From the NCBI GenBank assembly GCA_964551525.1, contig CAZKCH010000001.1, positions 1,831 to 65,830 on the forward strand: DNA of 64,000 nucleotides, written 5' to 3'. How positions within the stretch are numbered: position 1 is the first letter of the stretch; the number at the start of each line of letters is the position of its first letter. Shown here piece by piece: positions 28,482 to 48,872 of this stretch. Position numbers and translations under genes: made by a program. This DNA comes from an uncultured Candidatus Saccharibacteria bacterium (GTDB lineage Bacteria; Patescibacteriota; Minisyncoccia; Minisyncoccales; GWA2-46-15). The notes under the pieces were generated by a model, which saw nothing but the letters and a program-made list of their open reading frames with translations, had not been told where the DNA came from and searched no databases.

Positions 28482-29032
28482 GCCAGCAGCCGCGGTAAGA
28501 CAGAATCCCCAAGCGTTATCCGGATTTACTGGGCGTAAAGCGTCTGTAGGCGCCTTGTTGCATCTTTGGTTAAATTTTCGGGGCTCAACCCTGAAGCTGC
28601 CAAAGACATGGACAGGGTAGAGGGCGTTAGGAGTTGACGGAACGGTCGGTGTAGGGGTGAAATCCATTGATATCGACCGGAACACCAAAAGCGAAGGCAG
28701 TCAACTAAGACGACCCTGACGCTGAAAGACGAAAGCGTGGGCATAAAAAAGGATTAGATACCCTTGTATTCCACGCCCTAAACCATGGAGACTGGCTTCT
28801 TGAAGTGTCGACCCTTCAGGTGGCGAAGCTAACGCGTTAAGTCTCCCGCCTGGGAAGTACGATGGCAACATTAAAACTCAAAGGAATAGACGGGGACTCA
28901 CACAAGCGGTGGATCATGTGGCTCAATTCGACAACAAACGAGGAACCTTACCAGGGCTAGAAACCGTAGCGGACAGCTTACTGAAAAGCGAGCTTTCTCA
29001 CAAGGACCGCTATGGCAGGTACTGCATGGTTG

Positions 29033-29857: not shown

Positions 29858-30412
29858 TCGTCAGCAGGTCCCGTGAGGGTCTCCCTTAAATGGGGAAACC
29901 TGCGCAACCCTTACTCTGTGTTTTAAATGTCACAGGGAACTGCCCGGGATAACTGGGAGGAAGATGAGGATGACGCCAAATCAGCATGGTCCTTGATGCC
30001 CTGGGCCGCACACGTGATACAATGGAGCCGACAATGGGTTTGCCAAGCCGTAAGGCGGAGCTAACCCCATCAAACGACTCCTTAGTTCGGATTGAGGGCT
30101 GAAACTCGCCCTCATGAAGCCGGAATCGCTAGTAATCGGGAATCAGCTATGTCCCGATGAATATGTTCCTGAGTCTTGTACTCACCGCCCGTCACGTGAG
30201 ACGAGCCGGGAGTGGCCGAAGGCGCCTGTAAGGGCGACTAAGCCAAACTCGGTGAGAAGCACGAAGTCGTAACAAGGCACGCGTAGCGGAAGCTGTGCGT
30301 GGATCATTACTTTTTTTCTAGACTTTTTGTCTAGGAGCGTCGATCATAGTTGAAAATTGAGAATTCTATTTTCAACTGCGGACAATTGACTGGAATGTCT
30401 TTAAACTACAGT

Positions 30413-30431
30413 CCGGAGCAACTCTGAGAAG
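30413..30431 (+). promoter_or_regulatory. 16S trailer half of rRNA processing stem
   Basis: Complementary to 27046-27067. Additional local hairpins (ctagac-ttttt-gtctag; gttgaaaat...attttcaac) at 30320-30395. Confidence 0.55.
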
Positions 30432-30481
30432 TTTCCCCTCCAATACTAAAACCCGGAGCAAAGCGCAGCGGGTGATTTTGG

Positions 30482-33798: not shown

Positions 33799-33904
33799 CT
33801 TGCTCTATTTTAGCATGGGGAAATCGCAATTTAAACCAATGGAATTCTTGCTGTCGCCTAAATTTTTTGCTATCCTAAAACCAGTTAAAAATTAACTTAA
33901 ATAT

Positions 33905-34468
33905 ATGCCTATTTCTGCCAAATTAGCCAAGTTTTTGAGCCAAAACGAAATTAAATTTGAGGAAATTGAACATCGCACCGTTTATACTGGGCTGGACAAA
34001 GCCGCCACTTTAAGGGTAAAACCAAGCTTGATTGCCAAAACCATTGTTGTAAAATCAGGCAAGGAGTTGGCAATGGGAATACTGGCCGCTAATAGAAATG
34101 TGAATAAAAAGAAATTGGCCAAGGTCAGTAAATTAAAGAATCTTGATTTCATTTCCGAAAAGCTGATGAAATCCAAATTCGTTGGATTCAAAGTCGGCGC
34201 CCTGCCGCCTTTCGGCTTGCTTTTCAAAGTAACGTCGTTTATTGATAGGGGACTGGCTAAGGAAAAATTCGTTTACGCCAGTTCGGGCAACTACGAGATT
34301 TCTTTGAAAATATCGCCGAAAATCCTGGAAAAATTAGGGGCAGCGAAAGCAGATTTCTCTGTCGCAAAGAAAATAAACAAATTTAGCCTTCCGAAGAAGG
34401 TTGCAAAACCAAAACCAAAGAAGAATCCGCCTCGTCGGCAGGCGTCGTTTCCGCGCGCCCGCCGATGA
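33905..34468 (+). CDS. YbaK/ProX-family aminoacyl-tRNA deacylase domain protein with basic C-terminal tail
   Basis: GALPPFG motif and the YbaK fold length. Lys/Arg-rich tail. Confidence 0.6.
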   Translation: MPISAKLAKFLSQNEIKFEEIEHRTVYTGLDKAATLRVKPSLIAKTIVVKSGKELAMGILAANRNVNKKKLAKVSKLKNLDFISEKLMKSKFVGFKVGALPPFGLLFKVTSFIDRGLAKEKFVYASSGNYEISLKISPKILEKLGAAKADFSVAKKINKFSLPKKVAKPKPKKNPPRRQASFPRARR

Positions 34469-34478
34469 GGCGCAAAAC

Positions 34479-34550
34479 GGGCGTGTGGCTCAACGGTAGA
34501 GCGCGTTCCTGATAAGAACGAGGCCGAAGGTCCGACTCCTTCCACGCCCA
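34479..34550 (+). tRNA. tRNA-Ile (anticodon GAU)
   Basis: Acceptor gggcgtg/cacgccc, D-arm gctc-aacggta-gagc, anticodon loop ctgataa, T-arm gaagg-tccgact-ccttc. Confidence 0.85.
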
Positions 34551-34603
34551 TAACACGAGTATTTAGGATTTAGAAGTTAGAAGATAGAAAACGCCTGATT
34601 TCC

Positions 34604-34676
34604 GGGCCGTTGGCGCAGTTGGTAGCGCGCTTCATTTGCAATGAAGAGGTCGCCGGTCCGAATCCGGCACGGTCCA
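34604..34676 (+). tRNA. tRNA-Ala (anticodon UGC)
   Basis: Acceptor gggccgt/acggtcc with G3:U70, anticodon loop tttgcaa, T-arm gccgg-tccgaat-ccggc. Confidence 0.85.
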
Positions 34677-34830
34677 CAGTAGTAGTTTTTTAGAATTTAG
34701 AGTTTAGTATTTAGAGTTTCATTTCCCAGGGGTGCCGGATCACCGCAGAGCGGGATCCCGTCTTACGGGATCACCGCGAAGCGGGACTCCGCTACGCGGA
34801 GGTGGCCAATCGGGACAAAAAATACAAAAA

Positions 34831-35079
34831 ATGTATACTGTTTATATCTTAAGAAGTTTAAAATCTAAAAGGTTCTATATTGGACAAACAAATAATATCG
34901 CGGATAGATTAAGAAGACATAATCGAGGATTGGTCAAATCAACAAAATGGTTTATACCTTGGGAAATAGTCATAACAGAAAACTTTAATAATAGAAGCGA
35001 CGCATATAAACGCGAACAAGAGATCAAAAAATTTAAGTCCGGAATATTGTTTAAAAAAATAATTACCAGGGATGGCTGA
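34831..35079 (+). CDS. GIY-YIG nuclease domain protein (small, standalone)
   Basis: YTVYILRS...KRFYIGQTNNIADRLRRHN is the GIY-YIG core. Likely start is the ATG at 34831 (the track ORF starts at 34732 inside a direct-repeat region). The 3' end overlaps tRNA-Tyr by 14 nt. Confidence 0.55.
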   Translation: MYTVYILRSLKSKRFYIGQTNNIADRLRRHNRGLVKSTKWFIPWEIVITENFNNRSDAYKREQEIKKFKSGILFKKIITRDG

Positions 35080-35138
35080 GCGGTTAAGGCGCTGGTCTGT
35101 AAAACCAGTCTAGGTAGGTTCAACTCCTACTCCCTGGA
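35066..35138 (+). tRNA. tRNA-Tyr (anticodon GUA), type I (short variable arm), C1:G72
   Basis: Acceptor ccaggga/tccctgg, D-arm with GG, anticodon stem ctggt/accag with loop ctgtaaa, 5-nt variable loop, T-arm gtagg-ttcaact-cctac. Confidence 0.65.
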
Positions 35139-35167
35139 TCAACTACTACCAAACAAAAGATCGCCAA
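35136..35167 (+). repeat. direct repeat copy 1 (att-like) at tRNA-Tyr 3' end
   Basis: ggatcaactactaccaaacaaaagatcgccaa. A near-identical copy lies at 37752-37783. Confidence 0.55.
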
Positions 35168-35282
35168 GAAGGCGATTTTTTGATATGCAACATCATTAAA
35201 TTAGTTCGCTAGACTTAGTTGGTTATCTGTGCTAATTTTCTTATAGTAAACCTTCGATGTTTCACGGTTCAAGGAGGACCAT

Positions 35283-35912
35283 ATGAAACTCAAACTTTCC
35301 GACCTGATCGCTCTTTTGTACTTTGCGGCTATAACCGCATTCATCTTCCTGGCCAAGGACACTTTCATCTATCTGACCAAGACCTATCCTTACCCGATGG
35401 GTTTTATCAAGGTCGGGCTACTGGCCACCTTCGGCGAATGCCTGAAATACAGACTGACCAATCACAAATGGATCCCGTACAAGATCTGTCTTCGTTTCCT
35501 TGTCTGGGGGCTCTTTGGCATCTGGTTCGCCGCTGCCTTCCCGTATTCTGACGGAGGCGTTGTCGCCCTCGACAACGGCGGGCTATGGCCTGGCGCCTCG
35601 GCGCTATCCAAAAGCGCCTGGATCAACATCCTCGGCGGTTACGCCTTCTTCATGATGTTCATCCACTACTGGATGGATACGATGATTGCCGAAGGACCGT
35701 GCTGGCCATGGAAGATTTTCGGGACACCACAGTCGGTAAAGTGGGCGAAGATTGTCTTCATCGCCATGTTCGTCTGGTGGTTGCCGGCCCATACCTTCAC
35801 CTTTTCCCAACCGCCGGAATGGCGAGTCGTGATCGCCGCCTATCTTTCGGTCAGCCTCGGCCTGATCCTAGCCTTTGCATCAGGTTTCGAGGTGAGGAAA
35901 ACTATCACCTAA
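35283..35912 (+). CDS. polytopic membrane protein, foreign (high-GC) origin
   Basis: By eye about 52-55% GC versus about 40% around it, with GC-rich codon usage. Preceded by a canonical SD (aaggagg, 5-nt spacer), unlike other genes here. 5-6 TM helices. Confidence 0.5.
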   Translation: MKLKLSDLIALLYFAAITAFIFLAKDTFIYLTKTYPYPMGFIKVGLLATFGECLKYRLTNHKWIPYKICLRFLVWGLFGIWFAAAFPYSDGGVVALDNGGLWPGASALSKSAWINILGGYAFFMMFIHYWMDTMIAEGPCWPWKIFGTPQSVKWAKIVFIAMFVWWLPAHTFTFSQPPEWRVVIAAYLSVSLGLILAFASGFEVRKTIT

Positions 35913-36189
35913 ACAAGTAAGAGACGCATCGTAACGGTGCGTCTCTTTACTTACTTAAATTCTAAACAGGTTCTAACGTCGTCCCGTAGGCAGGACCAAA
36001 AAACTTTATTAGCGACTAAGTGATTGAGTGATTAGGACAATCGCCTCTATGCCGTTTCTCAGGCTGGGCAGTTTTTTTGACCAAAAATATGATATAATTA
36101 ATTTAATAAAAGAGTTGATGAACACGTTCGTGAAATTAAGGGCATTTTAACATAACACTTGACGATCACTACTTGACAACATATCATCT

Positions 36190-36567
36190 ATGATATATAC
36201 TGATAACATAGATTATAAAGTAAATTTTTACAGAAACTCTCAAACCAGTAAAAGTCCTGTTTTAGAGTATATAAACAATCTAAGTCATAAAGAAAGGGCA
36301 AAAATCTTAAAATACGTTGAATTCCTAAGGGAACACAAGGGGTATCTAGACGAACCATATTCAAAACACGTCAAGGGAAAAATTAGAGAATTAAGGATAG
36401 ATTTTGGCAAAAACAGATTCAGAATCTTCTACTTTACATTCATCAAGAAAACGATAGTTCTGCTTCACGCGTTCTTGAAGAGAACCGAAAAAACGCCAAT
36501 TAAAGAAATCAAGAAAGCTGAAGAAAATTATTACGACGTCTTAAATAATCCGAAATTATATGAATAG
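36190..36567 (+). CDS. type II toxin, HigB/RelE-like (phage Gp49-like addiction module killer)
   Basis: About 125 aa. Gp49/HigB-like blocks (KIRELRIDFGKNRFRIFYF...IVLLHAFLK). Overlaps the downstream HTH gene by 8 nt. Confidence 0.6.
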   Translation: MIYTDNIDYKVNFYRNSQTSKSPVLEYINNLSHKERAKILKYVEFLREHKGYLDEPYSKHVKGKIRELRIDFGKNRFRIFYFTFIKKTIVLLHAFLKRTEKTPIKEIKKAEENYYDVLNNPKLYE

Positions 36568-36874
36568 AACAAAGAAAATACAAAAAGCAGTTGATTTTCA
36601 AGAATACTTGAAAAGTCAATTGAAAAATCCCGAGGTCAAGAAACACTATGACGAATATGGTAAACGCCTGGAAATCGCTTACCAGATTTTAAGGTTGCGC
36701 AAACAGAAAAAAATGTCGCAAGTGGAATTGGCCAAGAGAATCGGCACCAAACAAAGCAACATCGCCCGCCTAGAAACGGGCCAGCAAAATTTTACTACCG
36801 AAACCCTGCAGAAAATAGCTTTGGTCTTTAACCGCGATCTCAGAATAGAATTCTGCTCGCCAAACAAGTTCTAA
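36560..36874 (+). CDS. HTH XRE-family antitoxin (HigA-like)
   Basis: MSQVELAKRIGTKQSNIARLETGQQNFT is a classic Cro/C1-type HTH. Confidence 0.7.
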   Translation: MNRTKKIQKAVDFQEYLKSQLKNPEVKKHYDEYGKRLEIAYQILRLRKQKKMSQVELAKRIGTKQSNIARLETGQQNFTTETLQKIALVFNRDLRIEFCSPNKF

Positions 36875-36909
36875 CCCATTCGTCGTTTCCTAACTCCTCA
36901 GGGCAAGCT

Positions 36910-36958
36910 GTCGTCCCGTAGGCAGGATACGAGTTTATTAGCAATTAGTTATTAGTTT
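36910..36958 (+). repeat. intergenic repeat unit (gtcgtcccgtaggcagga ... tttattagcaattagttattag)
   Basis: Same unit at 35978-36036. Related copies at 37737-37754 and 38600-38625. Confidence 0.5.
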
Positions 36959-36970
36959 TTAGCACTGACG

Positions 36971-37010
36971 AAACCGCCTTTTTATTAGGGCGGTTTTTTG
37001 GTATAATTTA
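36971..37010 (+). promoter_or_regulatory. hairpin/T-run terminator fused to extended -10 promoter (TGGTATAAT), leaderless start
   Basis: aaccgcc...ggcggtt stem, tttttt, tggtataat, then ATG 6 nt later. The same architecture (GGTTTTTTGGTAnAGT) recurs at 37821-37877, 38896-38937 and 39402-39437. Confidence 0.55.
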
Positions 37011-37013
37011 GAT

Positions 37014-37643
37014 ATGAGAACATATACTTTTATTGATGCCTCCAATTTATTTTACGGCGGGGAAAAGAATTTAGGATGGAAAATCGACTATCAAAAGCTT
37101 TTGTATTATTTAAAAGAAAAATATGGAGTTTCTCGGGTCTTATATTTTGGCGGTATAGAATTGCATGGTTTTAAGTTTGATTATCTCAAAGAGGAAACTG
37201 TGCCGGTTGAAAAAGCGGAAAACTATCTTTCCTCATTAGTCAAAGAGAAGGGTGATAAATTTACTGAAGCAATATTGTTATTAATTAACCGACATCTACA
37301 ACGAGCTCGTTTTTACTCAAAACTACAGAAATTCGGCTATGATCTCCATCTGAAGCCGGTTAAACTTTATGAACAGGAAGATGGCACGACTAAAAGAAAA
37401 GCGAACTGCGATGTCGATATGACATTCCATCTAATGAAGGAAAAAGATAATTTTGACAGAGCGCTTATTCTTTCCGGCGACGGAGACTTTTTACCAGTTT
37501 TGAAATTCCTAAAACAAAATGGTAAAGAGATAATCGTTCTGGCTCGTGGTTCGCGAACCGCCAAAGAAATCAGGCAATTTGCTGGTAGTAATTTTCGAGA
37601 TTTTGAATATCTAAAATATCTTCTAAAAATGGACTTGAAATAA
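37014..37643 (+). CDS. NYN-domain (LabA/PIN-like) predicted ribonuclease
   Basis: FIDASNL N-terminal Asp block and a LSGDGDFLPVL block typical of NYN/LabA-like proteins. Confidence 0.6.
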   Translation: MRTYTFIDASNLFYGGEKNLGWKIDYQKLLYYLKEKYGVSRVLYFGGIELHGFKFDYLKEETVPVEKAENYLSSLVKEKGDKFTEAILLLINRHLQRARFYSKLQKFGYDLHLKPVKLYEQEDGTTKRKANCDVDMTFHLMKEKDNFDRALILSGDGDFLPVLKFLKQNGKEIIVLARGSRTAKEIRQFAGSNFRDFEYLKYLLKMDLK

Positions 37644-37751
37644 AAACGAAGCGGACTCGTATAGAATCCGCTCCACGTTTAGTAGTTTCATTATACCTCG
37701 ACTGGCAACAGTGTCAACCTCCTAAAAAGGTCTAATGTCGTCTCGTAGAGA

Positions 37752-37783
37752 GGATCAACTACTACCAAACAAAGAATCGCCAA
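37752..37783 (+). repeat. direct repeat copy 2 (att-like)
   Basis: ggatcaactactaccaaacaaagaatcgccaa matches the tRNA-Tyr 3' flank (35136-35167) at 30 of 32 positions. Confidence 0.55.
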
Positions 37784-37820
37784 ACCCGCCCGCAACACTT
37801 CGTGTAGCGATGTGGGTAGG

Positions 37821-37877
37821 GGGGCGGCCTGCCCCGTAGTGAACTTGTTCTACTACAGGGTTTTTTGGTAGAGTACA
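37821..37877 (+). promoter_or_regulatory. hairpin/T-run + extended -10 (TGGTAGAGT) module
   Basis: ggggcggcctgcccc and gtagtgaac..gttctactac hairpins, tttttt, ggtagagt, then ATG 7 nt later. Confidence 0.5.
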
Positions 37878-37881
37878 ATAT

Positions 37882-38508
37882 ATGACTAGAAAAATTCATA
37901 AGAACTATTTTGATATAGTAATACTGCCAACAAAAGAAATTGGAGATTATTCTATTGCTCTAAGTAAACGGCTGCATAAATATGGATCAAATTCAATTTT
38001 AGGCAGAAAATCCTTTTTGCCCCATATTTCTCTTTATCACATTTCGATAAAAAAGAGGGATTTCGGGAATTTTATTGCTGAAATAGAGAAGATAACAAAT
38101 GATTTTAAGACGGGGCAGCTGGAAATCAAAGACCTGATATTATGGAAAGGCCATCGTTCGGTTCTTCTAATGACGAACAAACCGAAGTGGCTAAAAAATC
38201 TACACCTAAAAATAATAAAAGGGACATTAAAATATTTTAACTGGGATTACGGTATAGAGAAACTATGGAATCTTGATCACTGGTCTAAACTTATGCAGAA
38301 AAACATAAAACAATACGGAACGCCATTGGTAGGGAGATATTTTATGCCACACATCACATTAGGTGTATTAAATGATAAGAAGGGAGTAGTAAAGTTTTTT
38401 AACAAACTGAAGCTTAAAAAATATAAATTCAATCCTGTTTGTATCTACGTTTGCGAAATTGGCGAAGATCATACTTGTCAAAAAATAGTAAGAAAGATTC
38501 GTTTTTAA
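37882..38508 (+). CDS. 2H phosphoesterase superfamily protein (LigT/CPDase-like)
   Basis: Two H-x-S/T-x motifs (PHISLYH, PHITLGV) with appropriate spacing. Confidence 0.6.
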   Translation: MTRKIHKNYFDIVILPTKEIGDYSIALSKRLHKYGSNSILGRKSFLPHISLYHISIKKRDFGNFIAEIEKITNDFKTGQLEIKDLILWKGHRSVLLMTNKPKWLKNLHLKIIKGTLKYFNWDYGIEKLWNLDHWSKLMQKNIKQYGTPLVGRYFMPHITLGVLNDKKGVVKFFNKLKLKKYKFNPVCIYVCEIGEDHTCQKIVRKIRF

Positions 38509-38640
38509 CTTAGATTGTTCTTAAACGGGTCAACCCTTCAGTGTGATTCAGGGCCGGCTCTTTGATATGACTCAGGGCAAGTAGAGAAGGTCATGAAAGT
38601 GGCTAAGTGATTAAGTGGTTGAGTGGCCAAAACCAGAGAT

Positions 38641-38669
38641 TTGACAGCGATTATCTAAAGAATATAATG
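38641..38669 (+). promoter_or_regulatory. canonical sigma70-type promoter (TTGACA-17-TATAAT)
   Basis: ttgacagcgattatctaaagaatataat, 8 nt upstream of the Zn-ribbon ORF ATG. Confidence 0.5.
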
Positions 38670-38676
38670 GAAACGT

Positions 38677-38850
38677 ATGATGATAATTAAGTGCAATATA
38701 TGTAAAAAGACGATAAAGGGCAATGATCCCGTAACGGCAAGCGGGGGATTTGCCTCGAGAGTTGAATTATGCGAAAAATGCGGTTTGCCGATAATCAAAT
38801 TCTTGAAAAAACATAAATTTATAGCGGGCGGGACGCCCGATATATCGTAA
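38677..38850 (+). CDS. small zinc-ribbon protein (57 aa), not in ORF track
   Basis: MMIIKCNICKKT...VELCEKCGLP carries two CxxC pairs. Consensus promoter immediately upstream. Confidence 0.4.
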   Translation: MMIIKCNICKKTIKGNDPVTASGGFASRVELCEKCGLPIIKFLKKHKFIAGGTPDIS

Positions 38851-38895
38851 TCGCTATTAAAGAAAAACGATAGAGATTTCATCGCGGAATTTATC

Positions 38896-38937
38896 TCGTA
38901 TAAACCCTGTATTTACGCGGGGTTTTTTGGTAGAGTA
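38896..38937 (+). promoter_or_regulatory. hairpin/T-run + extended -10 (TGGTAGAGT) module
   Basis: Stem around ccctgtatttacgcgggg followed by ttttttggtagagt. Confidence 0.45.
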
Positions 38938-38954
38938 AAAAATAGAAATAAACC

Positions 38955-39368
38955 ATGAATATTAAACTAGCGACAGAAATAATTTTTCTACTCTGCATCA
39001 CGACTTTAGTTGTGACCATAATATTATCCAAATTATTTAGAGTAGAGCTTAAAAACACCGACCCCTCGGATATACCACCGGCGATGTGGTATATCGCAAT
39101 AATATCCGTAGTTTTGTTAGCTGCCGAAGGTACGGCGTGGTATTTTGAATCGCCAGAAACGGTTCCTAATGCGAAAAACGGTTTTCTGTTTGGACTTATG
39201 GCTGCCACCGTTGGTTTTATTAGCGACATACTTCTTTTAATTCCGCATAAGAATGGATCTAATATTTTGTTGGGCTATTATACTAAACCATGGTATTGGG
39301 CGGCATTTATCCTAATTTTAATCGTCTGCACCTTAGTTGGTTTTATAATGGCCAAAAGGGGCATATAA
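38955..39368 (+). CDS. hypothetical 4-TM membrane protein
   Basis: Four hydrophobic helices. No recognisable domain. Confidence 0.35.
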   Translation: MNIKLATEIIFLLCITTLVVTIILSKLFRVELKNTDPSDIPPAMWYIAIISVVLLAAEGTAWYFESPETVPNAKNGFLFGLMAATVGFISDILLLIPHKNGSNILLGYYTKPWYWAAFILILIVCTLVGFIMAKRGI

Positions 39369-39401
39369 TCCTTCGATGAAGTTTATGGTGAGCTTGTCGA
39401 A

Positions 39402-39437
39402 CCGCTCAGGACAAAAAGGCGGTTTTTTGGTAAAGTA
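39402..39437 (+). promoter_or_regulatory. hairpin/T-run + extended -10 (TGGTAAAGT) module
   Basis: ccgc..gcgg stem, tttttt, ggtaaagt, then ATG 7 nt later. Confidence 0.45.
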
Positions 39438-39443
39438 AGCAAT

Positions 39444-40040
39444 ATGATAAAGGCAGCGATATTCGACCTTAACGGAATATTTATTCAAGGCCCAAGATTG
39501 AGCGATAGATTCAAGGAGATTTTTGGTATTGAAACAAAAGATTTCTTGCCCGTGTTAAAAGAGATCATGGCAAAGATAAGAAAACCAAATGCGGGGAGTG
39601 CTTTTAGCCATTGGAAACCATATTTGGAGAGATGGAATGTCAGTCTGACGGAAGAACAGTTCCTTGATTTTTGGTTCGGTGCTGAAAAAGAAATTCCAGA
39701 ATTAATTGAATTGGCAAAACAGATAAAAACGAAAGGTGTTAAAGTGTTTATCCTGTCAAATAATTTTGCCGAAAGAGCCGATTATTATAAAAAGAGTTCT
39801 CCGTTCTTAACAGAAATTCCTGATAAAGTTTATTATTCTTGGCAAACGGGTTTCGTCAAACCGGACCCACAAGCATTCAAGAATCTGTTAACCGAGAACA
39901 ATCTTGAACCCGAGGAATGTATTTATTTTGATGATTTAGAAGAAAATATTAAAGTGGCAAACGACTTAGGAATGAAGGCCTTCCTTTATAATAACGTTAT
40001 CGGCTTAGAGGAAGCCCTGAGGAACAATCGGGTAATCTAA
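39444..40040 (+). CDS. HAD-superfamily hydrolase (subfamily IA-like phosphatase)
   Basis: AIFDLNGIF (motif I variant DxN), ILSNN (motif II-like) and YFDDLEENI (motif IV). Confidence 0.55.
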   Translation: MIKAAIFDLNGIFIQGPRLSDRFKEIFGIETKDFLPVLKEIMAKIRKPNAGSAFSHWKPYLERWNVSLTEEQFLDFWFGAEKEIPELIELAKQIKTKGVKVFILSNNFAERADYYKKSSPFLTEIPDKVYYSWQTGFVKPDPQAFKNLLTENNLEPEECIYFDDLEENIKVANDLGMKAFLYNNVIGLEEALRNNRVI

Positions 40041-40141
40041 TTCATCAAACAGGTTTCCAGCCTACGGCTGGTCAACCGAAGCAAGGGGCGAGCTGTCAAT
40101 CCCGTATTCAAAGCTTTAATATAAAGAAACAAACCGTATTT

Positions 40142-40906
40142 ATGAAATACTATCCAACTTTATTGCACGAGAAAGCCGCAAATAAAATGGTGGAGATTTT
40201 CAGTAGAGATAAATCGGTAATGAGCATCTTACTGACTTGTTCTTGCGCTAGGGGAAAGGCGTCGAAGGACTCCTGTCTGGACATATGCTTAATTGTAAAA
40301 AACAAGAATGATATTAAAAATATCAAAAGCAAATTTAATAAAGTTTATGGCCGAGATAAAATATTAAAGGGGCTTTCGAGGGCAGGGAAATACTCTCACA
40401 TAGATATAGAAATAACTGACGGAAAGATTATTCCCGTCGAAAGGGGATGGACCTCCGGTCCCGATGAATACGAATTAGAGATCGGAAACGTTTTCATCTA
40501 TTCAATGGTTTTATTCGACAGAAATAATCATTTTAAGAGACTAAGAAAGAACTATACCCCTTATTATTACGAGGGCCTGAGAAGAAAAAGATTAAAAGAA
40601 GTGAAGGAATTCATGTTTAACAACCTGGGCCACGTCCCTCTGCTCGTTAAAAGAAAACTATACTTCCAGGCCTTTAAAAGGTTTTATGATGCCACCAGGG
40701 AATTCTTGCAGGCGCTCTTTATAGAGAACAAAAAATACCCGATTGCTTATGATAAATGGGTAAAAGACCAACTAACAGAAATACTCGATAAGCCCGAACT
40801 TTACAAGGAATTCGTGGCCTTGTATGAGATTAAAAAACTGGAAAGCAACGAACTGGCCCTAAAAGCCGATAAGCTTAAAAAATTAGCAAAAAGATATTTA
40901 CCTTAA
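40142..40906 (+). CDS. pol-beta-superfamily nucleotidyltransferase, kanamycin nucleotidyltransferase (ANT(4')/KNTase)-like
   Basis: CSCARGKASKDSCLDICLIV matches the GS...SD.D minimal NTase signature. The 254-aa length and helical C-terminal domain resemble KNTase. Confidence 0.5.
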   Translation: MKYYPTLLHEKAANKMVEIFSRDKSVMSILLTCSCARGKASKDSCLDICLIVKNKNDIKNIKSKFNKVYGRDKILKGLSRAGKYSHIDIEITDGKIIPVERGWTSGPDEYELEIGNVFIYSMVLFDRNNHFKRLRKNYTPYYYEGLRRKRLKEVKEFMFNNLGHVPLLVKRKLYFQAFKRFYDATREFLQALFIENKKYPIAYDKWVKDQLTEILDKPELYKEFVALYEIKKLESNELALKADKLKKLAKRYLP

Positions 40907-40957
40907 GTTATATCGAAGGACTTGCCCTGAGCCGGGTCGAAGGGATAGAATAATACA

Positions 40958-42073
40958 ATGACTACTGAAGAACGGCTTGATCTCGTCAAACAAGTAGGGG
41001 AGGAGATTACCACCGAAGAAGAGCTGCGGCGGCTTTTAGAAACCGAAAAGAACTTGGTTGCCTATGACGGCTTTGAGCCCTCGGGCCAGATTCACATTGC
41101 CCAAGGTCTTTTACGCGCCATCAATGTCAACAAAATGATTAAGGCCGGCATCAAGTTTAAAATGCTGGTGGCTGACTGGCATGCGATGTGTAATGACAAA
41201 ATGGGCGGCGATCTGGAAAAAATTAAAATCGTGGGCCAATATTTCATTGAGGTTTGGCGGGCTTACGGCATGGATTTGAAAAACGTGGAGTTTGTTTGGG
41301 CTTCGGACTTAGTTAAAAACAGCAAATATTGGGAATTAGTTTTAAAGGTGGGCCGGACTAATAAACTGGCGCGCTTTATCAGAACCGCGGAATTCATGGG
41401 CCGAGAAGCAGCCGCGGAAACCTTGTCAGCGGCTCAGTTGTTTTATCCCTGCATGCAAATTGCTGATATTTTTACTCTGGGCGCCAAGATCACTCAATTA
41501 GGCATGGACCAGCGCAAAGTTAATATGTTGGCCCGGGAGATCGGATCCCAGCTCGGTTTTTGGAAACCAATAGTAATTTCACACCACATGCTCATGGGTT
41601 TGGATCAACCCCCCTCCGCCAATGCTTCGGAGGGCGAGGCCGCCATTGATAAAACCGCCAGGACCATAGCCCTCAAGATGTCTAAATCGAATCCTGATAA
41701 TGCGATTTTTATGACTGATTCAAAAGAAGAGATTGAAAGAAAAATTAACAAGGCCTGGTGCCCGGAAGGGGAGAGCCAAGAAAACCCGATTCTGGAATAC
41801 TGCCGTTATATAATTTTTGAATCCCTGGACCGACTTGGAACCAAAGAGATAAAAATTGAAAGACCGGAAAAATTCGGCGGCACCATTACGGTCAAATCCT
41901 ATGCTAAATTAGAAACGCTTTTCAGCCAGAAACAAATCCATCCCCAAGATCTGAAAAAAACAGTCGCCGAACTCTTAAACAAACTAATAGCGCCGGTCAG
42001 AGAACACTTTATCAAGGACAAGAGAGCGAAAAAACTGCTTGAACAAGTGACAGGTTTTGCCGTAACAAGATAA
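40958..42073 (+). CDS. tyrS: tyrosine--tRNA ligase, archaeal/eukaryotic type
   Basis: Strong collinear similarity to Methanocaldococcus-type TyrRS: YDGFEPSGQIHIAQG (HIGH), KMSKS, IERPEKFGGTITVKSYAKLETLFSQKQIHPQDLKKTVAELLNKLIAPVRE. Confidence 0.85.
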   Translation: MTTEERLDLVKQVGEEITTEEELRRLLETEKNLVAYDGFEPSGQIHIAQGLLRAINVNKMIKAGIKFKMLVADWHAMCNDKMGGDLEKIKIVGQYFIEVWRAYGMDLKNVEFVWASDLVKNSKYWELVLKVGRTNKLARFIRTAEFMGREAAAETLSAAQLFYPCMQIADIFTLGAKITQLGMDQRKVNMLAREIGSQLGFWKPIVISHHMLMGLDQPPSANASEGEAAIDKTARTIALKMSKSNPDNAIFMTDSKEEIERKINKAWCPEGESQENPILEYCRYIIFESLDRLGTKEIKIERPEKFGGTITVKSYAKLETLFSQKQIHPQDLKKTVAELLNKLIAPVREHFIKDKRAKKLLEQVTGFAVTR

Positions 42074-42154
42074 GTGGTATAATATTTTAATACCCAAAGG
42101 TCGACAATAATAGTGATTAGTTATTAGAAATTAGTTTTTTAACTTTTTACAAAT

Positions 42155-42835
42155 ATGCCTCAAGATTGGTTATCAGTAACCGTTGGCGCCCTCCAAGACC
42201 TTTGGCTTGGATTCTTGTATTTTATCCCGAATCTGATCGGCGCCGTAGTTGTTTTCGTTGTCGGCTGGCTCGCTTCTTCGTGGGTCGGCTGGGGAGTATC
42301 GAAAGTATTAAATCTTGCTAAATTGAACCAGCTTTTTGCCCGCGGCCAGTGGGATGAGGCCTTAGAAAAGGCCGGCATCAAAGCTGATGTCGCCGGTTTC
42401 ATCGGCCAGATTTGCCGCTGGATTCTGGTTTTGGTTTTCTTATCCGCCGCAGTGGAGATTCTCGGCCTGACGCAATTTGCTTCTCTTTTCGGACAAATAA
42501 TCGCCTGGCTGCCTAATGTGGTGGTGGTTGTTTTGATTATGGTCGTCGCCGTGATTGTCGCTGACATCTTAGAAAAATTAGCTGTCGCTTCAGTAGCGAG
42601 AGCAAAAATAAAATCCACTCAAGCCGTGGCTTTAGTGGTCAGATGGTCAATTTATATCTTCACTGTTCTAGTTGTTCTGATGCAATTGAAAATCGCTTCG
42701 CCCTTAGTCCAAACCGTGCTCACCGGCGTGATCGCCCTATTGGTGATTGCCGGCGGCTTGGCCATTGGCTTAGGTGGAAAGGATTTGGCAAAAGAAATCC
42801 TGGAAGACATTTACCGAAAGCTTAAGAACGAATAA
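42155..42835 (+). CDS. membrane protein with repeated conserved TM-helix units (MscS-N-terminal-like)
   Basis: Internally repeated hydrophobic helix plus amphipathic segments. No catalytic motif. Confidence 0.35.
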   Translation: MPQDWLSVTVGALQDLWLGFLYFIPNLIGAVVVFVVGWLASSWVGWGVSKVLNLAKLNQLFARGQWDEALEKAGIKADVAGFIGQICRWILVLVFLSAAVEILGLTQFASLFGQIIAWLPNVVVVVLIMVVAVIVADILEKLAVASVARAKIKSTQAVALVVRWSIYIFTVLVVLMQLKIASPLVQTVLTGVIALLVIAGGLAIGLGGKDLAKEILEDIYRKLKNE

Positions 42836-42867
42836 TTACCCGGGTTTTGACGTTAATTGGATCTCGC

Positions 42868-42892
42868 TTCGCCCCGGCTTTCAGCCGGGGCG
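42868..42892 (+). terminator. rho-independent terminator
   Basis: ccccggctttcagccgggg hairpin. A second hairpin/T-run (gcttcgaagcggtttttt) lies at 43022-43045. Confidence 0.5.
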
Positions 42893-42896
42893 GGCT

Positions 42897-42925
42897 ATTG
42901 ACAAACATATTCGTATTTAATACAA
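42897..42925 (+). promoter_or_regulatory. candidate rRNA promoter (TTGACA-17-TACAAT)
   Basis: ttgacaaacatattcgtatttaatacaat. A second TTGACA lies at 43133, upstream of the 23S leader. Confidence 0.4.
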
Positions 42926-43805
42926 TCAAAAATACTCTTAGATTTAAACATTCCTATGAATACCATTCTTTATACTCTCACCAAAAGAAGCGGCTAATTC
43001 CTTAGGATTTTTTATTGCCTAAGCGACCGCTTCGAAGCGGTTTTTTCTTTTCTCGCGCCGGCATTGACGCTGAATAAAAAATTGGCGGTAAAACCGGATT
43101 GAGAACCAAAAAACGAAAGAAAAAGAACGGACTTTGACAACTTAATAAAATTCTAGCTAATTAAGTAAAAACTCCTTAAATTTACAGACGAATCTGGTGA
43201 ATCTAAGGAGGGTAAGAAATTGTGGTTACAACAGGTTGATGGCGGATGCCTTGGAAAGTCGAGGCGACGAAGGACGTGGCGTGACTGCGATAAGCTCCGG
43301 GGAGGTGTCAAGCAACCCGTGAACCGGAGATGTCCGAATCTGGAAACAGGGCCGCGCAAAACGCGGTCGACCCCGAGCGCAAGTGAGGGGTAGCGTACCT
43401 GGGGAAGTAAAACCTTTCAGTACCCAGAGGAAAATAAAACAATGTTTCGTGTTTTACACGAGATGATTCCCTTAGTAGCGGCGAGTGAAAAGGGAAATAG
43501 CCTAGAGTTCTAAGCTTCGCAAGAAGCTTGGAGCAGTTAAAAGAGAGCGACGCCTGAAGTTTTCCCCTTTATCCCGAGAGAAATCGAGGGACAAGGAGAA
43601 AACTTTGGAAAGAGTAAAAAAATTGATTGTTAGCCAAAGTCCCCTGGAAAGGAACACCAAAGAGGGTAATAGTCCCGTAGGCGAAAACGATCAATCTCTT
43701 AGTCTCTTAGTCCCGCAAGGGACAAATCTTAAGTACTATAGGGCATGATAAATCTATAGGAAGTCGGCTGAACTACTTTCAAGCCAAGGCTAAATACTCG
43801 ACTTT

Positions 43806-43844
<39 letters not shown>

Positions 43845-45279
43845 CAGCCCGGCGAGGGCGATGAAATAGTACCTGAAACCATCTAACCTACAAAGAGTCG
43901 GAGCCCCACAGAGCGCAAGCTTTTGCGGGGTGACGGCGTACTTTTTGGAGAACGAGCCAACGAGTTGTTGTGCATAGTTGTCTAACCCCGTTAAACGGGG
44001 GAAGGCAAAGCGAAAGCAAGCGTTAATAGCGCGACTAAAACTGTGCACCCCAGACCCGAAGCCAAGCGAGCTTGCCAGCGTCAGGGTGAATCCCGCCGAA
44101 GGGCGAGAAGAAGCCCGTACCTGTGAGCCGTGCAATACTCTAGGACGAACGGTGGCACGAAGAGAAAACCTAAACGAGCTTGGTAATAGCTGGTTCTTCC
44201 CGAAATAGCTTTTGGACTAGCTCCGCCGTATTATATTTTTCAGGGGTAGAGCACTGAAAAGAATATCGTGGCTTTTAGCCAGGTATTCTTATCAAACTCC
44301 GAATACTGAAAAATTCAGGCGGAAGTAAGAACCCGGGCGCTAAGGTCCGGGCTCAAAAGGGAAACAGCCCAGACCTTCATCTAAGGCCCCCAAGTTTAAA
44401 CTAAGTGCTAGGAAGGAAGTGATTTTCCTATGATAGTCAGGAGGTGAGCTTAGAAGCAGCTACCCTTTAAAAAGTGCGTAACAGCTTACTGATTAAGGAA
44501 TTTCGCACCAAAGATTAACGGGGCTCAAGTTTAACGCCGAAGATAAGGGCCCGCCCACATCTGCAAAGTTGTGGCGGGCGGTAGGGAAGCGTCCTTTGTT
44601 CAGCGAAGCCCCTCCGTAAGGTCGGGGTGGAGAACAAGGGAGTGAGAATGTTGGCATGAGTAACCGCAATCCGGGTGAGATCCTCGGACACCGAAAGCCC
44701 AAGATTTCCTTGGCAATGATTTTCAGCCAGGGGTTAGGCGGCCCTAACACTGCGACCAAATGGCCTCAGTGGATGGACAGCCGGTTAATATTCCGGCCCT
44801 TCGGTTGTTTTTCAAAAGGGTGACGCAATCAAAGTTCTTGATAGGATTATTGGATTTCCGAGAGTCGAGATTTATCTCGACCGTTTCAAGAATCAGATTG
44901 CCAAGAAAAACCCTGAGATTTAAAACAACCGGATCCGTATCGCAAACCGACACAGGCAGGCAGGTCGAGTAGACCAAGGTGAACGGGTGAAAGCTCCTGA
45001 AGGAACTCGGCAAAAAAGCTACCCGTAAGTTCGCAAGATGGGTTGCCCCGACCCGCAAGGGTTATGGGGCCGCAGCTAACGATTCCTTAGCGACTGTTTA
45101 TCAAAAACACAGGCTCCTGCTTAACTCGTAAGAGGAAATATAGGAGCCGAGACCTGACCAGTGCTGGAACGTCAAACTCGACGATTTTACCGCAAGGTAA
45201 AACTGATCGAGCTAAGCGCCAGTGAACGTCCGCTCTAACTCTGAGAGTGTTAAAGTAGCGTAACCCCTTGTCAGGTAAG

Positions 45280-46035
45280 AGATTTGCCTGTGCTCACAGC
45301 AGTGAGCAATAAATCCGGCTAATAACGGTGAAATCCTCGTTAGAGTCCCGCATCAAGGGCGGGACGTTGAAAACAAGATAATACCGTGGGAAGTCCCGTT
45401 AAACGGGACCCCGTAACGACTGACGTCGCCGATAGCTATTGGCGACCGAGATAGTAGATGCTATGATGAAATAACATTTACGGATTTAATGAAAAAAATA
45501 CTATCATATGCCGGCACTAAACAATTCTAAATCAAAGAAAAATCTACCAGTATATATTTCTGGTTATGTAGACGGGGAAGGATGCTTTAGTGTTTCCTTC
45601 TCAAAAAGAGAAAAACTGTCAGTGGGATGGGAAACAAAACCAAGTTTTGCCGTAGGGCAAAACTATGACCGATCAGAAGTAATTAAATTACTAAAGCTTT
45701 ATTTAAATTGCGGAAGTATAAGACGTGATTATTCTGACAAAACATTGAAATTCGAGGTCCGTAGTTTAAATGACCTGGTAGAAAAAGTAATTCCTCATTT
45801 TCGTCAGTACCCTTTATTATCAAATAAGCGAAAAGATTTCGATTTGTTTGTAAAAATATGCGGGCTGATGAAAAAAGAAAAACACCTTCAAAGAAGGGGA
45901 TTAAAAAAGATTGTCAATTTCGCGTATCAAATGAACGCAAGCGGTAAACGAAAATACAAAAAAGAGGAAATTACAAAAGAATTGTCTATTTGAAGATATA
46001 GTCTGCACCATAAGAAATTATGAGACAATGTGAAG
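45280..46035 (+). mobile_element. 23S intron (probable group I) in domain IV, GGGTAAG|TTCCGACC site (about E. coli 1917-1923)
   Basis: About 756 nt with no 23S homology restore the universal sequence when removed. Contains ctaataacggtgaaa and taataccgtgggaag motifs, shared with the other introns. Confidence 0.6.
45508..45993 (+). CDS. LAGLIDADG homing endonuclease
   Basis: LPVYISGYVDGEGCFSVSF is a classic LAGLIDADG motif. 161 aa, within the 23S insertion. Confidence 0.8.
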   Translation: MPALNNSKSKKNLPVYISGYVDGEGCFSVSFSKREKLSVGWETKPSFAVGQNYDRSEVIKLLKLYLNCGSIRRDYSDKTLKFEVRSLNDLVEKVIPHFRQYPLLSNKRKDFDLFVKICGLMKKEKHLQRRGLKKIVNFAYQMNASGKRKYKKEEITKELSI

Positions 46036-46568
46036 TTCTGACCCGCATGAAAGGTTTCACGACTAAGGAACTGTCTCCAGGAGTTGCCCGGTGAAAATGC
46101 AGTAGGGGTGAAGATGCCCCTTACCTGCGGCTAGACGGAAAGACCCCGAGAGCTTCACTGTAAGGTGGTATTGGATTTTGGGTTTGGATGCGTAGCGTAG
46201 TAGGGAGGATTTGAAGTCCCGTTTTTGGACGGGATGGATCCGACAATGAAACACCTATCTTTTAAACTCTCAATTCTAATTCCGCTGATGAAGCGGATAA
46301 CAGTGCCACCCCGGCAGTTTAAGTGGGGCACTTGCCTCCCAAAAAGTACTGGAGGCGTTTAAAGGTCGGCTAGCTCCGGATGGAAATCGGAGCGATAGGG
46401 CAAAGCCATAAGCCGGCTTTACTGCAAGGCGGATATGCCGCGCAGTTGGGAAACCAGAACTTAGTGAACCGATGCGTCATAGTAGAAGGCGCAAAGATCA
46501 ACAGACAAAAGTTACCTCGGGGATAACAGGCTAGTAGGGCCCGCGAGTCCACATCTACGGCCCTGTTC

Positions 46569-46601
<33 letters not shown>

Positions 46602-46730
46602 GTGAAGCAGCTCCCAAGGGTCTGGCTGTTCGCCAGTTAAAGTGGTACGTGAGCTGGGTTCAAACCGTCGCGAGACAGGTTGGTCCCTATCTACCGCAGG
46701 CGTTGAGTCTTGAGGAGAGTCTCGGACAGT

Positions 46731-47527
46731 AAATAAAATTGCTGCTTCAGAGAGTAATCTCTGATGACAAATTGGCTAATAACGGTGAAACCTTCATTGG
46801 AATTATGCGGAAAGCGTATTTTTCCGCTTGTAGGTCCAACGGAAAAATGATATGATTTTCTTGAGGACCGCATAATTTTAAATAAGGTAATACCGTGGGA
46901 AGACAAACAAAAATACCCAAAACAGATTTAGCTTATATCGCTGGTTTTTTGGACGGTGACGGAAGTGTTATAGTCCAAATGAAAAACAGAAGGCACAATC
47001 CAAGAGGATGGCGATTAATGTTCACAATCTGCTTTTATCAGGATACGCGTCATGAAAAACCGCTATCCTGGATAAAAAAGACATTAGGAATAGGTTATAT
47101 TTCTCGCCGGAAAGATGGAATTACCGAACTAAGAATTAATGGTTTTGGAAGAACCAAAGAGATTCTGGAAAATTTATCACCATATATCAAGTTTAAGAAA
47201 AAACAGGTAAACATTTTACTAACGATCTTAAAAAAGATCGTAGGCAAGAATTTTCCTGATTTGACCAGAAAACAGCGGTTAAAAATAGCAGATATGATTT
47301 ATGAATCAAGACAGTTAACCTATCAATCTGGTTGGAAAAAATTCTCTAAGTCAAAAAGGGAATTAAGAGAAAGATTGGGTTTTTAATTAAAGTTTGTCCC
47401 CGTAACGACTTTCCGCATTAATGCGGAGGATGGCATAGTTTTATACGCCATAATACGCCAACCACGCGTTCAATTTATGAACGCGCGGAAGATATAGTCT
47501 AAGCTTGTAGAAATACAAGGCAACTTG
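46731..47527 (+). mobile_element. 23S intron (probable group I) inserted in the sarcin-ricin loop (AGU|ACGAGAGGACC)
   Basis: Removing about 797 nt restores ggacagtacgagaggacc. Same conserved core motifs (ggctaataacggtgaaa, aataccgtgggaag). Confidence 0.6.
46895..47386 (+). CDS. LAGLIDADG homing endonuclease
   Basis: LAYIAGFLDGDGSVIVQ motif. 163 aa, within the 23S insertion. Confidence 0.8.
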   Translation: MGRQTKIPKTDLAYIAGFLDGDGSVIVQMKNRRHNPRGWRLMFTICFYQDTRHEKPLSWIKKTLGIGYISRRKDGITELRINGFGRTKEILENLSPYIKFKKKQVNILLTILKKIVGKNFPDLTRKQRLKIADMIYESRQLTYQSGWKKFSKSKRELRERLGF

Positions 47528-47852
47528 ACGAGAGGACCTCTGAGAACTGACCTCTGGTGTACCAGTTGTCCTGCCAAGGGCATTGCTGGGTAGCTATGTC
47601 GGGCATGGATAAGTGTTGAAAGCATCTAAACACGAAGCCAACTCCAAGATTAGGACTCATAGATTCCTTGAAGACCACAAGGTTAATAGGCTGCAGGCGT
47701 AAGGCCCGCAAGGGTTTAAACCGAGCAGTACTAATAAATCATCAACCATAATTTTCTTACCTTCCTTAGCTTTGCCAGATATTCATTATATCCTGGCGTT
47801 TTGGCAAAAAAATGAAGCTCCCTTCTCTCATCTTGAGATAAAATTAAACACA

Positions 47853-47966
47853 GAGGTGGGGACTATACCGAGGTTGTCCCACTCGTTCCCATTCCGAACA
47901 CGACCGTGAAATACCTCATGGCTGATGATAGTCCTTCCGGGCGAAAGTAGGTAGTCCCCACCCCTT
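47853..47966 (+). rRNA. rrf: 5S rRNA
   Basis: ccgaacacgaccgtgaaatacc and gggcgaaagtaggtagtccccaccc blocks. Helix I pairing ggtgggga/tccccacc. 100 nt downstream of the 23S. Confidence 0.75.
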
Positions 47967-48038
47967 TGTTTAATCTGACGATGTCCGTTATCAAAAACGC
48001 GCTTTTAAAATTGGCCCAAAAGGGGATATAATAGGTAA

Positions 48039-48872
48039 ATGGATAAATACTTTTTCAAAACCAAAAAGAGGCCCTTGCCACCGGCAATTTTAATTGCCTT
48101 GGTTTTTCTTTCATCCTTGCTGGCAATTAAATTCTTGGGCTTAGAGAAAAAAGTCCAAAACGTTTTTCTTCTGGCTTCTTCGCCCGTCGAAACATTTCTC
48201 TGGCAAAGCGGGCAAAAAACCAGCCAGTTTTTTGATAACTTTATTCAAAAAAAACTCTTGGCCAAAGAAAACACCACTCTCCGGCTCGAAAACCTGTCTT
48301 TAAAGAGAAAAATTAGCCAGCTCCAAGAATTGAAACAGGAAAACCAATCCCTGCGGGAAGCCCTAAACTTGGAATTAGAAAAAGACTTTGATTTATTAGC
48401 CGCCCAGATTATAAGCAAAGATCCTTTTAACGACGCTATTTTTATCGATAAGGGCAATGCCGACGGCTTAAAAAACGGTTGGGCCTTGATCAGCCCGCAA
48501 AGAATTCTTCTGGGAAAAATAACCGAGGTCTTTGAAAACTTCTCGCGGGTGGTGCTTATTTCCGATAAAAGCGTTTCTTTTGATGCGGAGGTTAAAAAAA
48601 TCAGCGCGGAAAACAGCGAAAAAATAAGGGGCGTGGCCAAAGGAGAGGGGAATAACCGGCTTTCTTTTGATTTAATTCCTCAAGAAGCAGTGATCGAAAT
48701 AGGGGACAAGGTTATTACCAGTTCTCCTTCTAATGCTTTTCCCGGCGGCATTTTAGCCGGAGAAATCGAAGGGATAAACTTTTCCGATGTCAGACCATTC
48801 CGCAGCGCCAAAATCAAGCCCTTGTTCAAAATCAGCGAATTAAAAACTATCTTCATAATCAAAAACTATTGA
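48039..48872 (+). CDS. mreC: rod shape-determining protein MreC
   Basis: N-terminal TM helix, coiled coil, C-terminal GDKVITSSPSNAFPGGILAGEI block typical of MreC. Confidence 0.75.
   Translation: MDKYFFKTKKRPLPPAILIALVFLSSLLAIKFLGLEKKVQNVFLLASSPVETFLWQSGQKTSQFFDNFIQKKLLAKENTTLRLENLSLKRKISQLQELKQENQSLREALNLELEKDFDLLAAQIISKDPFNDAIFIDKGNADGLKNGWALISPQRILLGKITEVFENFSRVVLISDKSVSFDAEVKKISAENSEKIRGVAKGEGNNRLSFDLIPQEAVIEIGDKVITSSPSNAFPGGILAGEIEGINFSDVRPFRSAKIKPLFKISELKTIFIIKNY

Follow-up and report, generated by a model that had tools for sequence, protein, structure and literature searches.

As a rule, group I introns of ribosomal RNA occupy conserved positions that are critical to function, and it is the most conserved sites of rRNA genes that homing endonucleases colonise. 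The stretch of DNA analysed here, a window of 64,000 nucleotides, holds a 23S rRNA gene that is interrupted twice, once in domain IV and once inside the sarcin-ricin loop (SRL). The second position raises the question of what kind of element can reside there: a mobile intron that is spliced out with ligation of the exons, a resident intron that no longer moves, an insert whose excision leaves the rRNA in fragments, or a product of faulty assembly. The best explanation of the observations reported below is that of two mobile group I introns in a single 23S gene of a Nealsonbacteria-like CPR bacterium. We hold with high confidence that both inserts are group I introns carrying a LAGLIDADG homing-endonuclease gene, a judgement that takes in the fold together with the splicing and homing mechanism proposed for them. 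As a hot spot for such elements, the SRL fits the colonisation of conserved rRNA sites.

Position of the inserts in the 23S gene

The 23S gene was delimited with Rfam, which also places a 5S rRNA at 47855-47963, and its exons were aligned with MAFFT to the E. coli 23S sequence (L001). The annotated E. coli copy runs one nucleotide below standard numbering in this region; positions were corrected through landmarks and calibrated on H69 U1911, A2058 and SRL A2654. On this scale, window 46730 corresponds to U2656 and 47528 to A2657, and the junction falls within the SRL AGUACGAGAGGACC (2654-2667), where the insert separates AGU from ACGAGAGGACC. At the other insert, window 45276 corresponds to U1951 and 46033 to A1952. 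The gene ends approximately at 47755, which aligns with E. coli 2904. Following the 5' exon nucleotide, we refer to the inserts as L1951 and L2656, the latter also as the SRL intron; the features of both are collected in Table 1.

A sequence-only reading of this DNA had described a 797-nt insert inside the SRL (helix 95), and alignment to the E. coli reference bears this out, placing the junction inside the SRL and not outside helix 95. The second intron that it proposed in domain IV is also real, with a length of 756 nt, but its junctions were set 3 nt too far downstream (45280-46035 instead of 45277-46032). Its assignment of both inserts to group I introns with LAGLIDADG ORFs agrees with the E. 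coli alignment, with a fold supported by covariation and with Pfam.

Apart from the introns, the Rfam alignment reveals two additional stretches in domain I that remain unaligned to the bacterial consensus, of about 62 nt (~43545-43615) and about 19 nt (~43700-43720). Both resemble short expansion or intervening segments and are separate from the introns.

Table 1. Features of the interrupted 23S gene and of the other homing-endonuclease ORFs in the window. Pairing percentages refer to 52 homologous introns; in slid controls the 3' partner was shifted by 1-2 columns.
Feature	Position	Strand	Details	Evidence
23S rRNA gene including both introns	43219..47755	+		Rfam RF02541, 1886 bits; 3' end aligned to E. 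coli 2904
23S exons	43219-45276, 46033-46730, 47528-~47755	+		
Group I intron L1951	45277..46032	+	756 nt, between U1951 and A1952	E. coli alignment; relatives
L1951 core		+	P1: exon CAGGU (45272-45276) with guide GCCUG (45286-45290); P4, P6 hairpin, P7, P7.1, P7.2, P3, P9; omega-G 46032	
L1951 hairpins between P7 5' strand and P3 3' strand	45425-45446, 45451-45464	+		
LAGLIDADG_1 ORF of L1951	45508..45993	+	161 aa, between P3 3' strand and P7 3' strand (P8 position)	Pfam PF00961, E 1e-24
Group I intron L2656 (SRL intron)	46731..47527	+	797 nt, between U2656 and A2657	exon alignment; 80/80 loci; 52-homologue pair counts; ORF-less relatives match RF00028
L2656 P1	46727..46744	+	5' exon CAGU and intron AA (46727-46732) with guide UUGCUG (46739-46744)	sequence reading
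L2656 P2 hairpin	46748..46763	+	CAGAGA-GUAA-UCUCUG, GNRA loop	100% canonical; slid controls 30-41%
L2656 P3 5' strand	46772..46776	+	UUGGC, with GCCAA at 47457-47461; P3-P7 pseudoknot	96% canonical; slid controls 9-34%
L2656 P4-P5 domain	46782..46896	+	P4 ACGGUG (46782-46787) with UACCGU (46891-46896), around the P5 extension	P4 100% paired, nearly invariant
LAGLIDADG_1 ORF of L2656	46895..47386	+	163 aa, in the P6 loop, GUG start	Pfam PF00961, E 1.2e-11
L2656 P6	46897..47401	+	GGG-AA-GACAAAC (46897-46908) with GUUUGUC-CCC (47392-47401), around the ORF	83.5% canonical
L2656 core 3' half	47407..47499	+	P7 GACU (47407-47410) with AGUC (47496-47499)	P7 invariant, 52/52
L2656 hairpins and P3 3' strand		+	P7.1 47412-47427; P7.2 47430-47451; P3 3' strand 47457-47461; P8 47465-47485	window sequence reading
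L2656 3' end	47501..47527	+	P9.0 AAG 47501-47503 with CUU 47524-47526; P9 hairpin, GAAA loop, 47504-47519; omega-G 47527	
16S-internal ORF	27780-28382		200 aa	LAGLIDADG_2, E 3e-36
16S-internal ORF	29166-29663		165 aa	LAGLIDADG_3, E 2.6e-9

Fold of the SRL intron

A structure was read from the window and checked against 52 cleanly delimited homologous introns, from which the ORF was cut out before the two halves were aligned. The strands follow each other in the order P3, P4-P6, P7, P7.1, P7.2, P3', P8, P7', P9.0, P9, P9.0' and omega-G; this predicted order matches a group I intron that has a P3/P7 pseudoknot as well as IA-like P7.1 and P7.2. R-like GUAACGACU and S-like AAGAUAUAGUC elements can also be read in the core. 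Double changes occur in all six pairs of P2, in four of the five pairs of P3, in five of the six pairs of P9 (99.7% canonical), in all three pairs of P9.0 (95% canonical) and in four of the seven pairs of P6. Pairing in the slid controls amounts to 9-63% for P2, P3, P9 and P9.0, and to 9-66% when P6 is included. P4 and P7 show next to no variation at all (Table 1). P7.1, P7.2 and P8 are paired at 46-58% in the same alignment, which is too length-variable to assess these hairpins. Subgroup IA is marked by two extra hairpins that separate the 5' strand of P7 from the 3' strand of P3. Candidates for such a pair can be read in both introns of the gene; in the homologues they are of variable length and only 46-53% paired.

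Both splice sites have the features expected of group I introns. At the 5' splice site, U2656 forms a wobble with G in the pairing of exon CAGU with guide GCUG. Because hairpins inserted into the P1 loop lower the alignment-based count of P1 (84%), exon and guide were extracted from each sequence instead: 63 of 70 relatives combine exon UAGU with guide GCUA, and the CAGU/GCUG combination of the window, a compensatory change, is found again in its closest relatives, L084 and L085. At the 3' splice site, every related intron has a terminal G before ACGAGAGGAC, and P9.0 positions this omega-G. Of the P1-P10 pairings with the exon flanks, which the sequence-only reading had put forward for modelling, P1 is present with its U-G wobble but P10 was not seen: the sequence upstream of the guide offers no pairing partner for ACGAGA of the 3' exon. 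P10 is not universal in group I introns.

The Rfam Intron_gpI model (RF00028) gives no match in 43000-48100 at E<=1, none in 45260-45520 at E<=10 and none at its gathering threshold, likely because ORFs of about 490 nt split the core of the window introns. A motif scan of metagenome contigs recovered 13 ORF-less introns at L2656, of 292-515 nt, and all five that were scanned match RF00028, with 57.5 (L145), 48.7, 40.8, 36.4 and 30.5 bits. Only L145 exceeds the gathering score of 50 bits; the introns below this score have E-values of 5e-10 to 1e-4. The five are 55-66% identical to the window's intron after deletion of its ORF, and their exon flanks are alike. In the subset of loci submitted to Rfam, the only RF00028 match lies on a different, ORF-less intron in L005. 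Weak sRNA and snoRNA matches inside the window introns (Polynucleobacter-1, SNORD61 and others) lie well below thresholds and were set aside as chance matches.

An SRL-like element in the P5 extension

The P5 extension of the SRL intron contains a hairpin loop with GGUCC (46833-46837) and a conserved GAGGACC (46863-46869), the latter present in 65 of 70 ORF-containing relatives. In three of these (L021, L022 and L064) the element takes the form GCGAGAGGACC and matches the 3' strand of the SRL, CGAGAGGACC, over 10 nt. The GGUCC loop is complementary to GGACC both in the intron and in the 3' exon; its variants GGUCU, GAUCC and AGUCC occur without compensation. We considered whether the element forms a full bulged-G (sarcin-ricin) module and rejected this: its 5' half UGNUAYRAU is too variable, GGUCC lies in a hairpin loop, and several ORF-less relatives do without the element.

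The module is at best, and probably, a peripheral tertiary contact, because some of the ORF-less introns (L145, L110 and L130) lack it. It is improbable, in our estimation, that it represents a site-specific copy of the SRL strand with its complementary loop, which would capture or chaperone the 3' exon in replacement of P10, or would prevent the SRL halves from misfolding before ligation.

The endonuclease encoded by the SRL intron

The protein encoded in the P6 loop scores 45.9 bits against Pfam PF00961, whose cut-off is 23.1, and bears the motif IAGFLDGDGS. It has 2054 homologues, and in an alignment with 33 of them it retains all family-invariant residues, including GFLDGDG and D20, G21, D22, G23, Q49 and K101. 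Its matches in the PDB are I-CreI, I-MsoI and I-CvuI, with E-values of 1e-13 to 1e-16; the match to I-CreI (E about 2e-13) extends over residues 5-122. By analogy with these enzymes, the 163-aa protein should be a single-motif, I-CreI-like endonuclease acting as a homodimer.

The sole plausible start of this ORF is the GUG at 46895, inside the junction of the P4 3' strand and P6 (46891-46908). The start codon being situated within the ribozyme core, the conserved N-terminal MGRQ of the protein family is dictated by the conserved ribozyme sequence ACCGUGGGAAG. It also follows from this position that an RNA molecule can probably either fold as the ribozyme or have its ORF translated, but not both at once. 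Expression of the endonuclease, with its GUG start within the P4/P6 core, is uncertain.

The intron-less consensus DNA of the SRL consists of CCCTAGT followed, across the insertion point, by ACGAGAGG. A palindromic GTAC is centred on the insertion point, and the consensus homing site is symmetric at 5 of 11 positions (P=0.14, not significant), the window at 4 of 11. Such palindromy agrees only weakly with an enzyme that acts as a homodimer. If active as predicted, the protein would amount to a natural meganuclease specific for the DNA that encodes the SRL, and might then be of some minor use to enzyme engineers.

Recurrence and mobility

A scan with an alignment of the homing endonuclease, using one genome per species, identified 551 genomes that encode a relative, and the best 80 loci, from 80 species genomes, were examined. 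In all 80 of these best loci the endonuclease gene is followed, 100-310 nt further on, by G and ACGAGAGGAC, which places an intron at the same nucleotide. Among 120 related metagenome 23S loci, the SRL is uninterrupted in 43 and interrupted in 21. Patchy presence and absence, together with the coexistence of ORF-containing and ORF-less forms, is what a homing element should show.

It is nevertheless conceivable, though unlikely, that the intron is resident and no longer mobile, its ORF having become a splicing maturase or being in decay, with vertical inheritance as the only means of spread. Such a state would suit a start codon buried in the ribozyme core and the poorly palindromic homing site of the window, and LAGLIDADG maturases are known in organelles (PMC11270868). 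The ORF, however, is of full length and keeps every invariant residue of the catalytic motif, and the irregular distribution of the intron among related 23S genes, with ORF-less versions alongside, fits a homing cycle in which an intron is gained, then loses its ORF and is finally lost itself. Moreover, I-ShaI, a CPR LAGLIDADG enzyme of the same family, is an active endonuclease that cuts its own insertion site, in that case another site, 23IS7 (PMC11270868). Mobility is thus the reading that we retain.

The closest metagenomic relative, L084 (JGI 3300038439), has three LAGLIDADG ORFs (LAGLIDADG_2, LAGLIDADG_1 and LAGLIDADG_1) in a 2.2 kb 3' region of its 23S gene, from which it follows that neighbouring sites, probably 2593 or 2604, are occupied in the L084 lineage and not in the window. 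Several genomes with the SRL intron (L016, L017, L020-L022, L049 and L063) are recorded as WS2, Gammaproteobacteria or Elusimicrobiota, and the records of many others read 'uncultured Candidatus Saccharibacteria', although introns of this kind are reported to be absent from that group. Placeholder taxonomy or mis-binned rRNA contigs are the probable source of these labels.

Splicing, homing and competing explanations

What is known of this family of introns, applied to the position, the covariation-supported fold, the intact ORF, the recurrence at one site and the presence/absence polymorphism observed here, predicts self-splicing with ligation, an endonuclease activity and the target of that endonuclease. 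In the precursor 23S rRNA, the intron would fold into a standard ribozyme with a P3-P9 core and a P3/P7 pseudoknot. An exogenous guanosine would attack after U2656, held in the U-G wobble of P1, and the terminal G would then be docked by P9.0 into the G-binding site of P7. Attack of the 5' exon after omega-G would religate U2656 to A2657 and restore the AGUACGAGAGGACC loop. At the DNA level, the I-CreI-like homodimer would cleave 23S genes that have no intron, around the GTAC in the middle of the stretch encoding the SRL, and repair from an intron-bearing copy would lead to gene conversion and to the spread of the intron. A homodimeric LAGLIDADG enzyme of this kind would be expected to cut the intron-less allele at or near the insertion site with 4-nt 3' overhangs, here across GTAC.

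Ligation is the step that separates this scheme from excision without religation, in which the insert would be removed like an RNase III-processed intervening sequence (IVS) and the mature 23S rRNA would be left fragmented at the SRL. An IVS is a short insert that takes the place of the tip of a variable helix, 25 or 45, with a long flanking stem and neither ribozyme core nor ligation; the present insert instead interrupts the universally conserved SRL and has a complete group I core. Covariation in that core, the U-G pair, the omega-G, P9.0 and the RF00028 matches of the relatives all argue for a splicing intron. The cut made by alpha-sarcin, which inactivates ribosomes, is 5 nt away from such a break at 2656/2657, and this is apparently the only 23S gene on the contig. 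Fragmented 23S rRNA produced by IVS excision is known in bacteria and has been suggested for some short CPR inserts (PMC11270868), but IVS are known from the helix tips of variable regions and not from the SRL, and for the present insert we regard this outcome as very improbable. Splicing with ligation of the exons remains our preferred reading.

An assembly chimera or mis-join, the alternative that the sequence-only reading had itself named, is hardly credible: the contig is metagenome-assembled and the intron is poorer in GC than the exons (0.36 against 0.50), but the SRL intron is no artefact, because a separately assembled Logan contig of 908 nt (SRR13007705_119969) reproduces window 46672-47579, both junctions included, with 0 mismatches and because the same intron occupies the same nucleotide in the best 80 genomes, from many studies, and in metagenome contigs, while its guide sequence co-varies with the exon base C2653 of its own lineage.

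The L1951 intron

An AAG repeat at both junctions of the domain IV intron allows four possible registers. We place the junction between U1951 and A1952 because group I rules call for a 5' exon ending in U and an intron ending in G, and because the related intron of L018 starts with AAC and not AAG. In five relatives (L067, L018, L075, L005 and L016) the intron is inserted between GGU and AAGUUC and ends in G. In L018, exon CUGGU faces guide GCCAG, a compensatory change of P1 relative to the window. The same core was found at L1951 in 58 metagenome loci.

The protein of this intron scores 87.8 bits against PF00961 (cut-off 23.1) and bears the motif ISGYVDGEGC. In the PDB it matches each half of I-OnuI-family enzymes, with E-values down to 8e-44. 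The L1951 and SRL introns have long, near-identical core motifs in common (GGCUAAUAACGGUGAAA, AUAAUACCGUGGGAAG, CCCGUAACGACU and GAAGAUAUAGUCU), whereas their endonucleases differ in clade and in the loop that they occupy, I-OnuI-like in P8 for L1951 and I-CreI-like in P6 for the SRL intron. This suggests that different ORFs invaded related ribozymes independently.

Relation to known systems

Inserts in 23S genes are common in this part of the bacterial tree. In a survey of 348 CPR 23S genes by Tsurumaki et al. (2024, J Bacteriol), inserts were found in 82% (PMC11270868). LAGLIDADG_1 predominates at positions 1917, 1931, 1952, 2593, 2604 and 2657 (23IS6-8 and 23IS12-14); 1952 and 2657 are frequent group I/LAGLIDADG_1 sites in CPR 23S genes, and no other bacteria had been reported to carry group I introns at 23IS13 or 23IS14 (PMC11270868). 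Citing Brown et al., the same authors state that CPR inserts are removed from transcripts (PMC11270868).

When compared with these catalogued sites, 2657 is 23IS14 and 1952 is 23IS8. The window inserts agree with them in clade, in position (with a difference of 1 nt in convention), in their group I-like flanks and in a single-domain LAGLIDADG_1 ORF (PMC11270868). Each is at least 100 bp long, lies at ~2657 or ~1952 of a CPR genome and combines a group I intron with LAGLIDADG_1. The window introns are therefore instances of 23IS8 and 23IS14, ordinary for their lineage and located at a catalogued site, and do not constitute a discovery. The rarity implied by the sequence-only reading does not hold, position 2657 being a catalogued CPR hot spot (23IS14, PMC11270868) and the same intron being present in at least 80 species genomes.

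For 2657, the survey contains no mention of the sarcin-ricin loop, of a fold, of a splice-site definition or of covariation (PMC11270868), and our search for literature on a group I intron or homing endonuclease interrupting the SRL found nothing beyond its position list. What the present analysis adds is a nucleotide-exact site (U2656/A2657) and a covariation-supported fold for a class of CPR introns that was listed only as 'position 2657', and it identifies the hot spot as lying in the middle of the SRL. Beyond such documentation its significance is small, and it raises no new question on ribosome function. That ribosome function depends on accurate splicing is a reasonable inference, but it is not special to the SRL and applies equally to rRNA introns in the peptidyl-transferase region.

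Two further systems offer points of comparison. L1951 is a classical site for group I introns, in Coxiella and in organelles (Raghavan et al. 2007, cited in PMC11270868). The Cbu.L1951 intron of Coxiella burnetii and organellar L1951 introns lie at the same site as the first intron of the window, whose core likewise has putative P7.1 and P7.2 hairpins; the host differs, and the window intron has a LAGLIDADG ORF in the P8 position. The L2593 intron of the Chlamydomonas reinhardtii chloroplast LSU gene, with its enzyme I-CreI, likewise combines a universally conserved 23S site with a single-motif LAGLIDADG enzyme of about 160 aa. It differs from the SRL intron in its position in the peptidyl-transferase region, so that the DNA target is not the same, and in its host, an organelle and not a bacterium.

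Host and other rRNA genes

By sequence, the host is assigned to the CPR (Patescibacteria), near Nealsonbacteria. Among homologues with a named source, those of the homing endonuclease and of a histidine kinase encoded nearby belong to Candidatus Nealsonbacteria, Pacebacteria and Paceibacterota, and the related loci, among the best 80 of 551, are overwhelmingly Patescibacteria MAGs. Gene order is conserved with Nealsonbacteria GCA_016207115.1 (L085), where the 5S gene directly follows the 23S gene and is itself followed by MreC (48039-48872 in the window).

The 16S and 23S genes are unlinked, at a distance of ~12.9 kb (30315-43218) that holds tRNAs (34479-35138) and ORFs on both strands. The 16S gene (27090-30314) is interrupted as well, and is recovered by Rfam as two pieces, 27090-27642 (model positions 9-546) and 28362-30314. 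Counting the two ORFs inside the 16S gene (Table 1) with those of the 23S introns, the rRNA genes of this genome hold at least four homing-endonuclease ORFs from three Pfam families.
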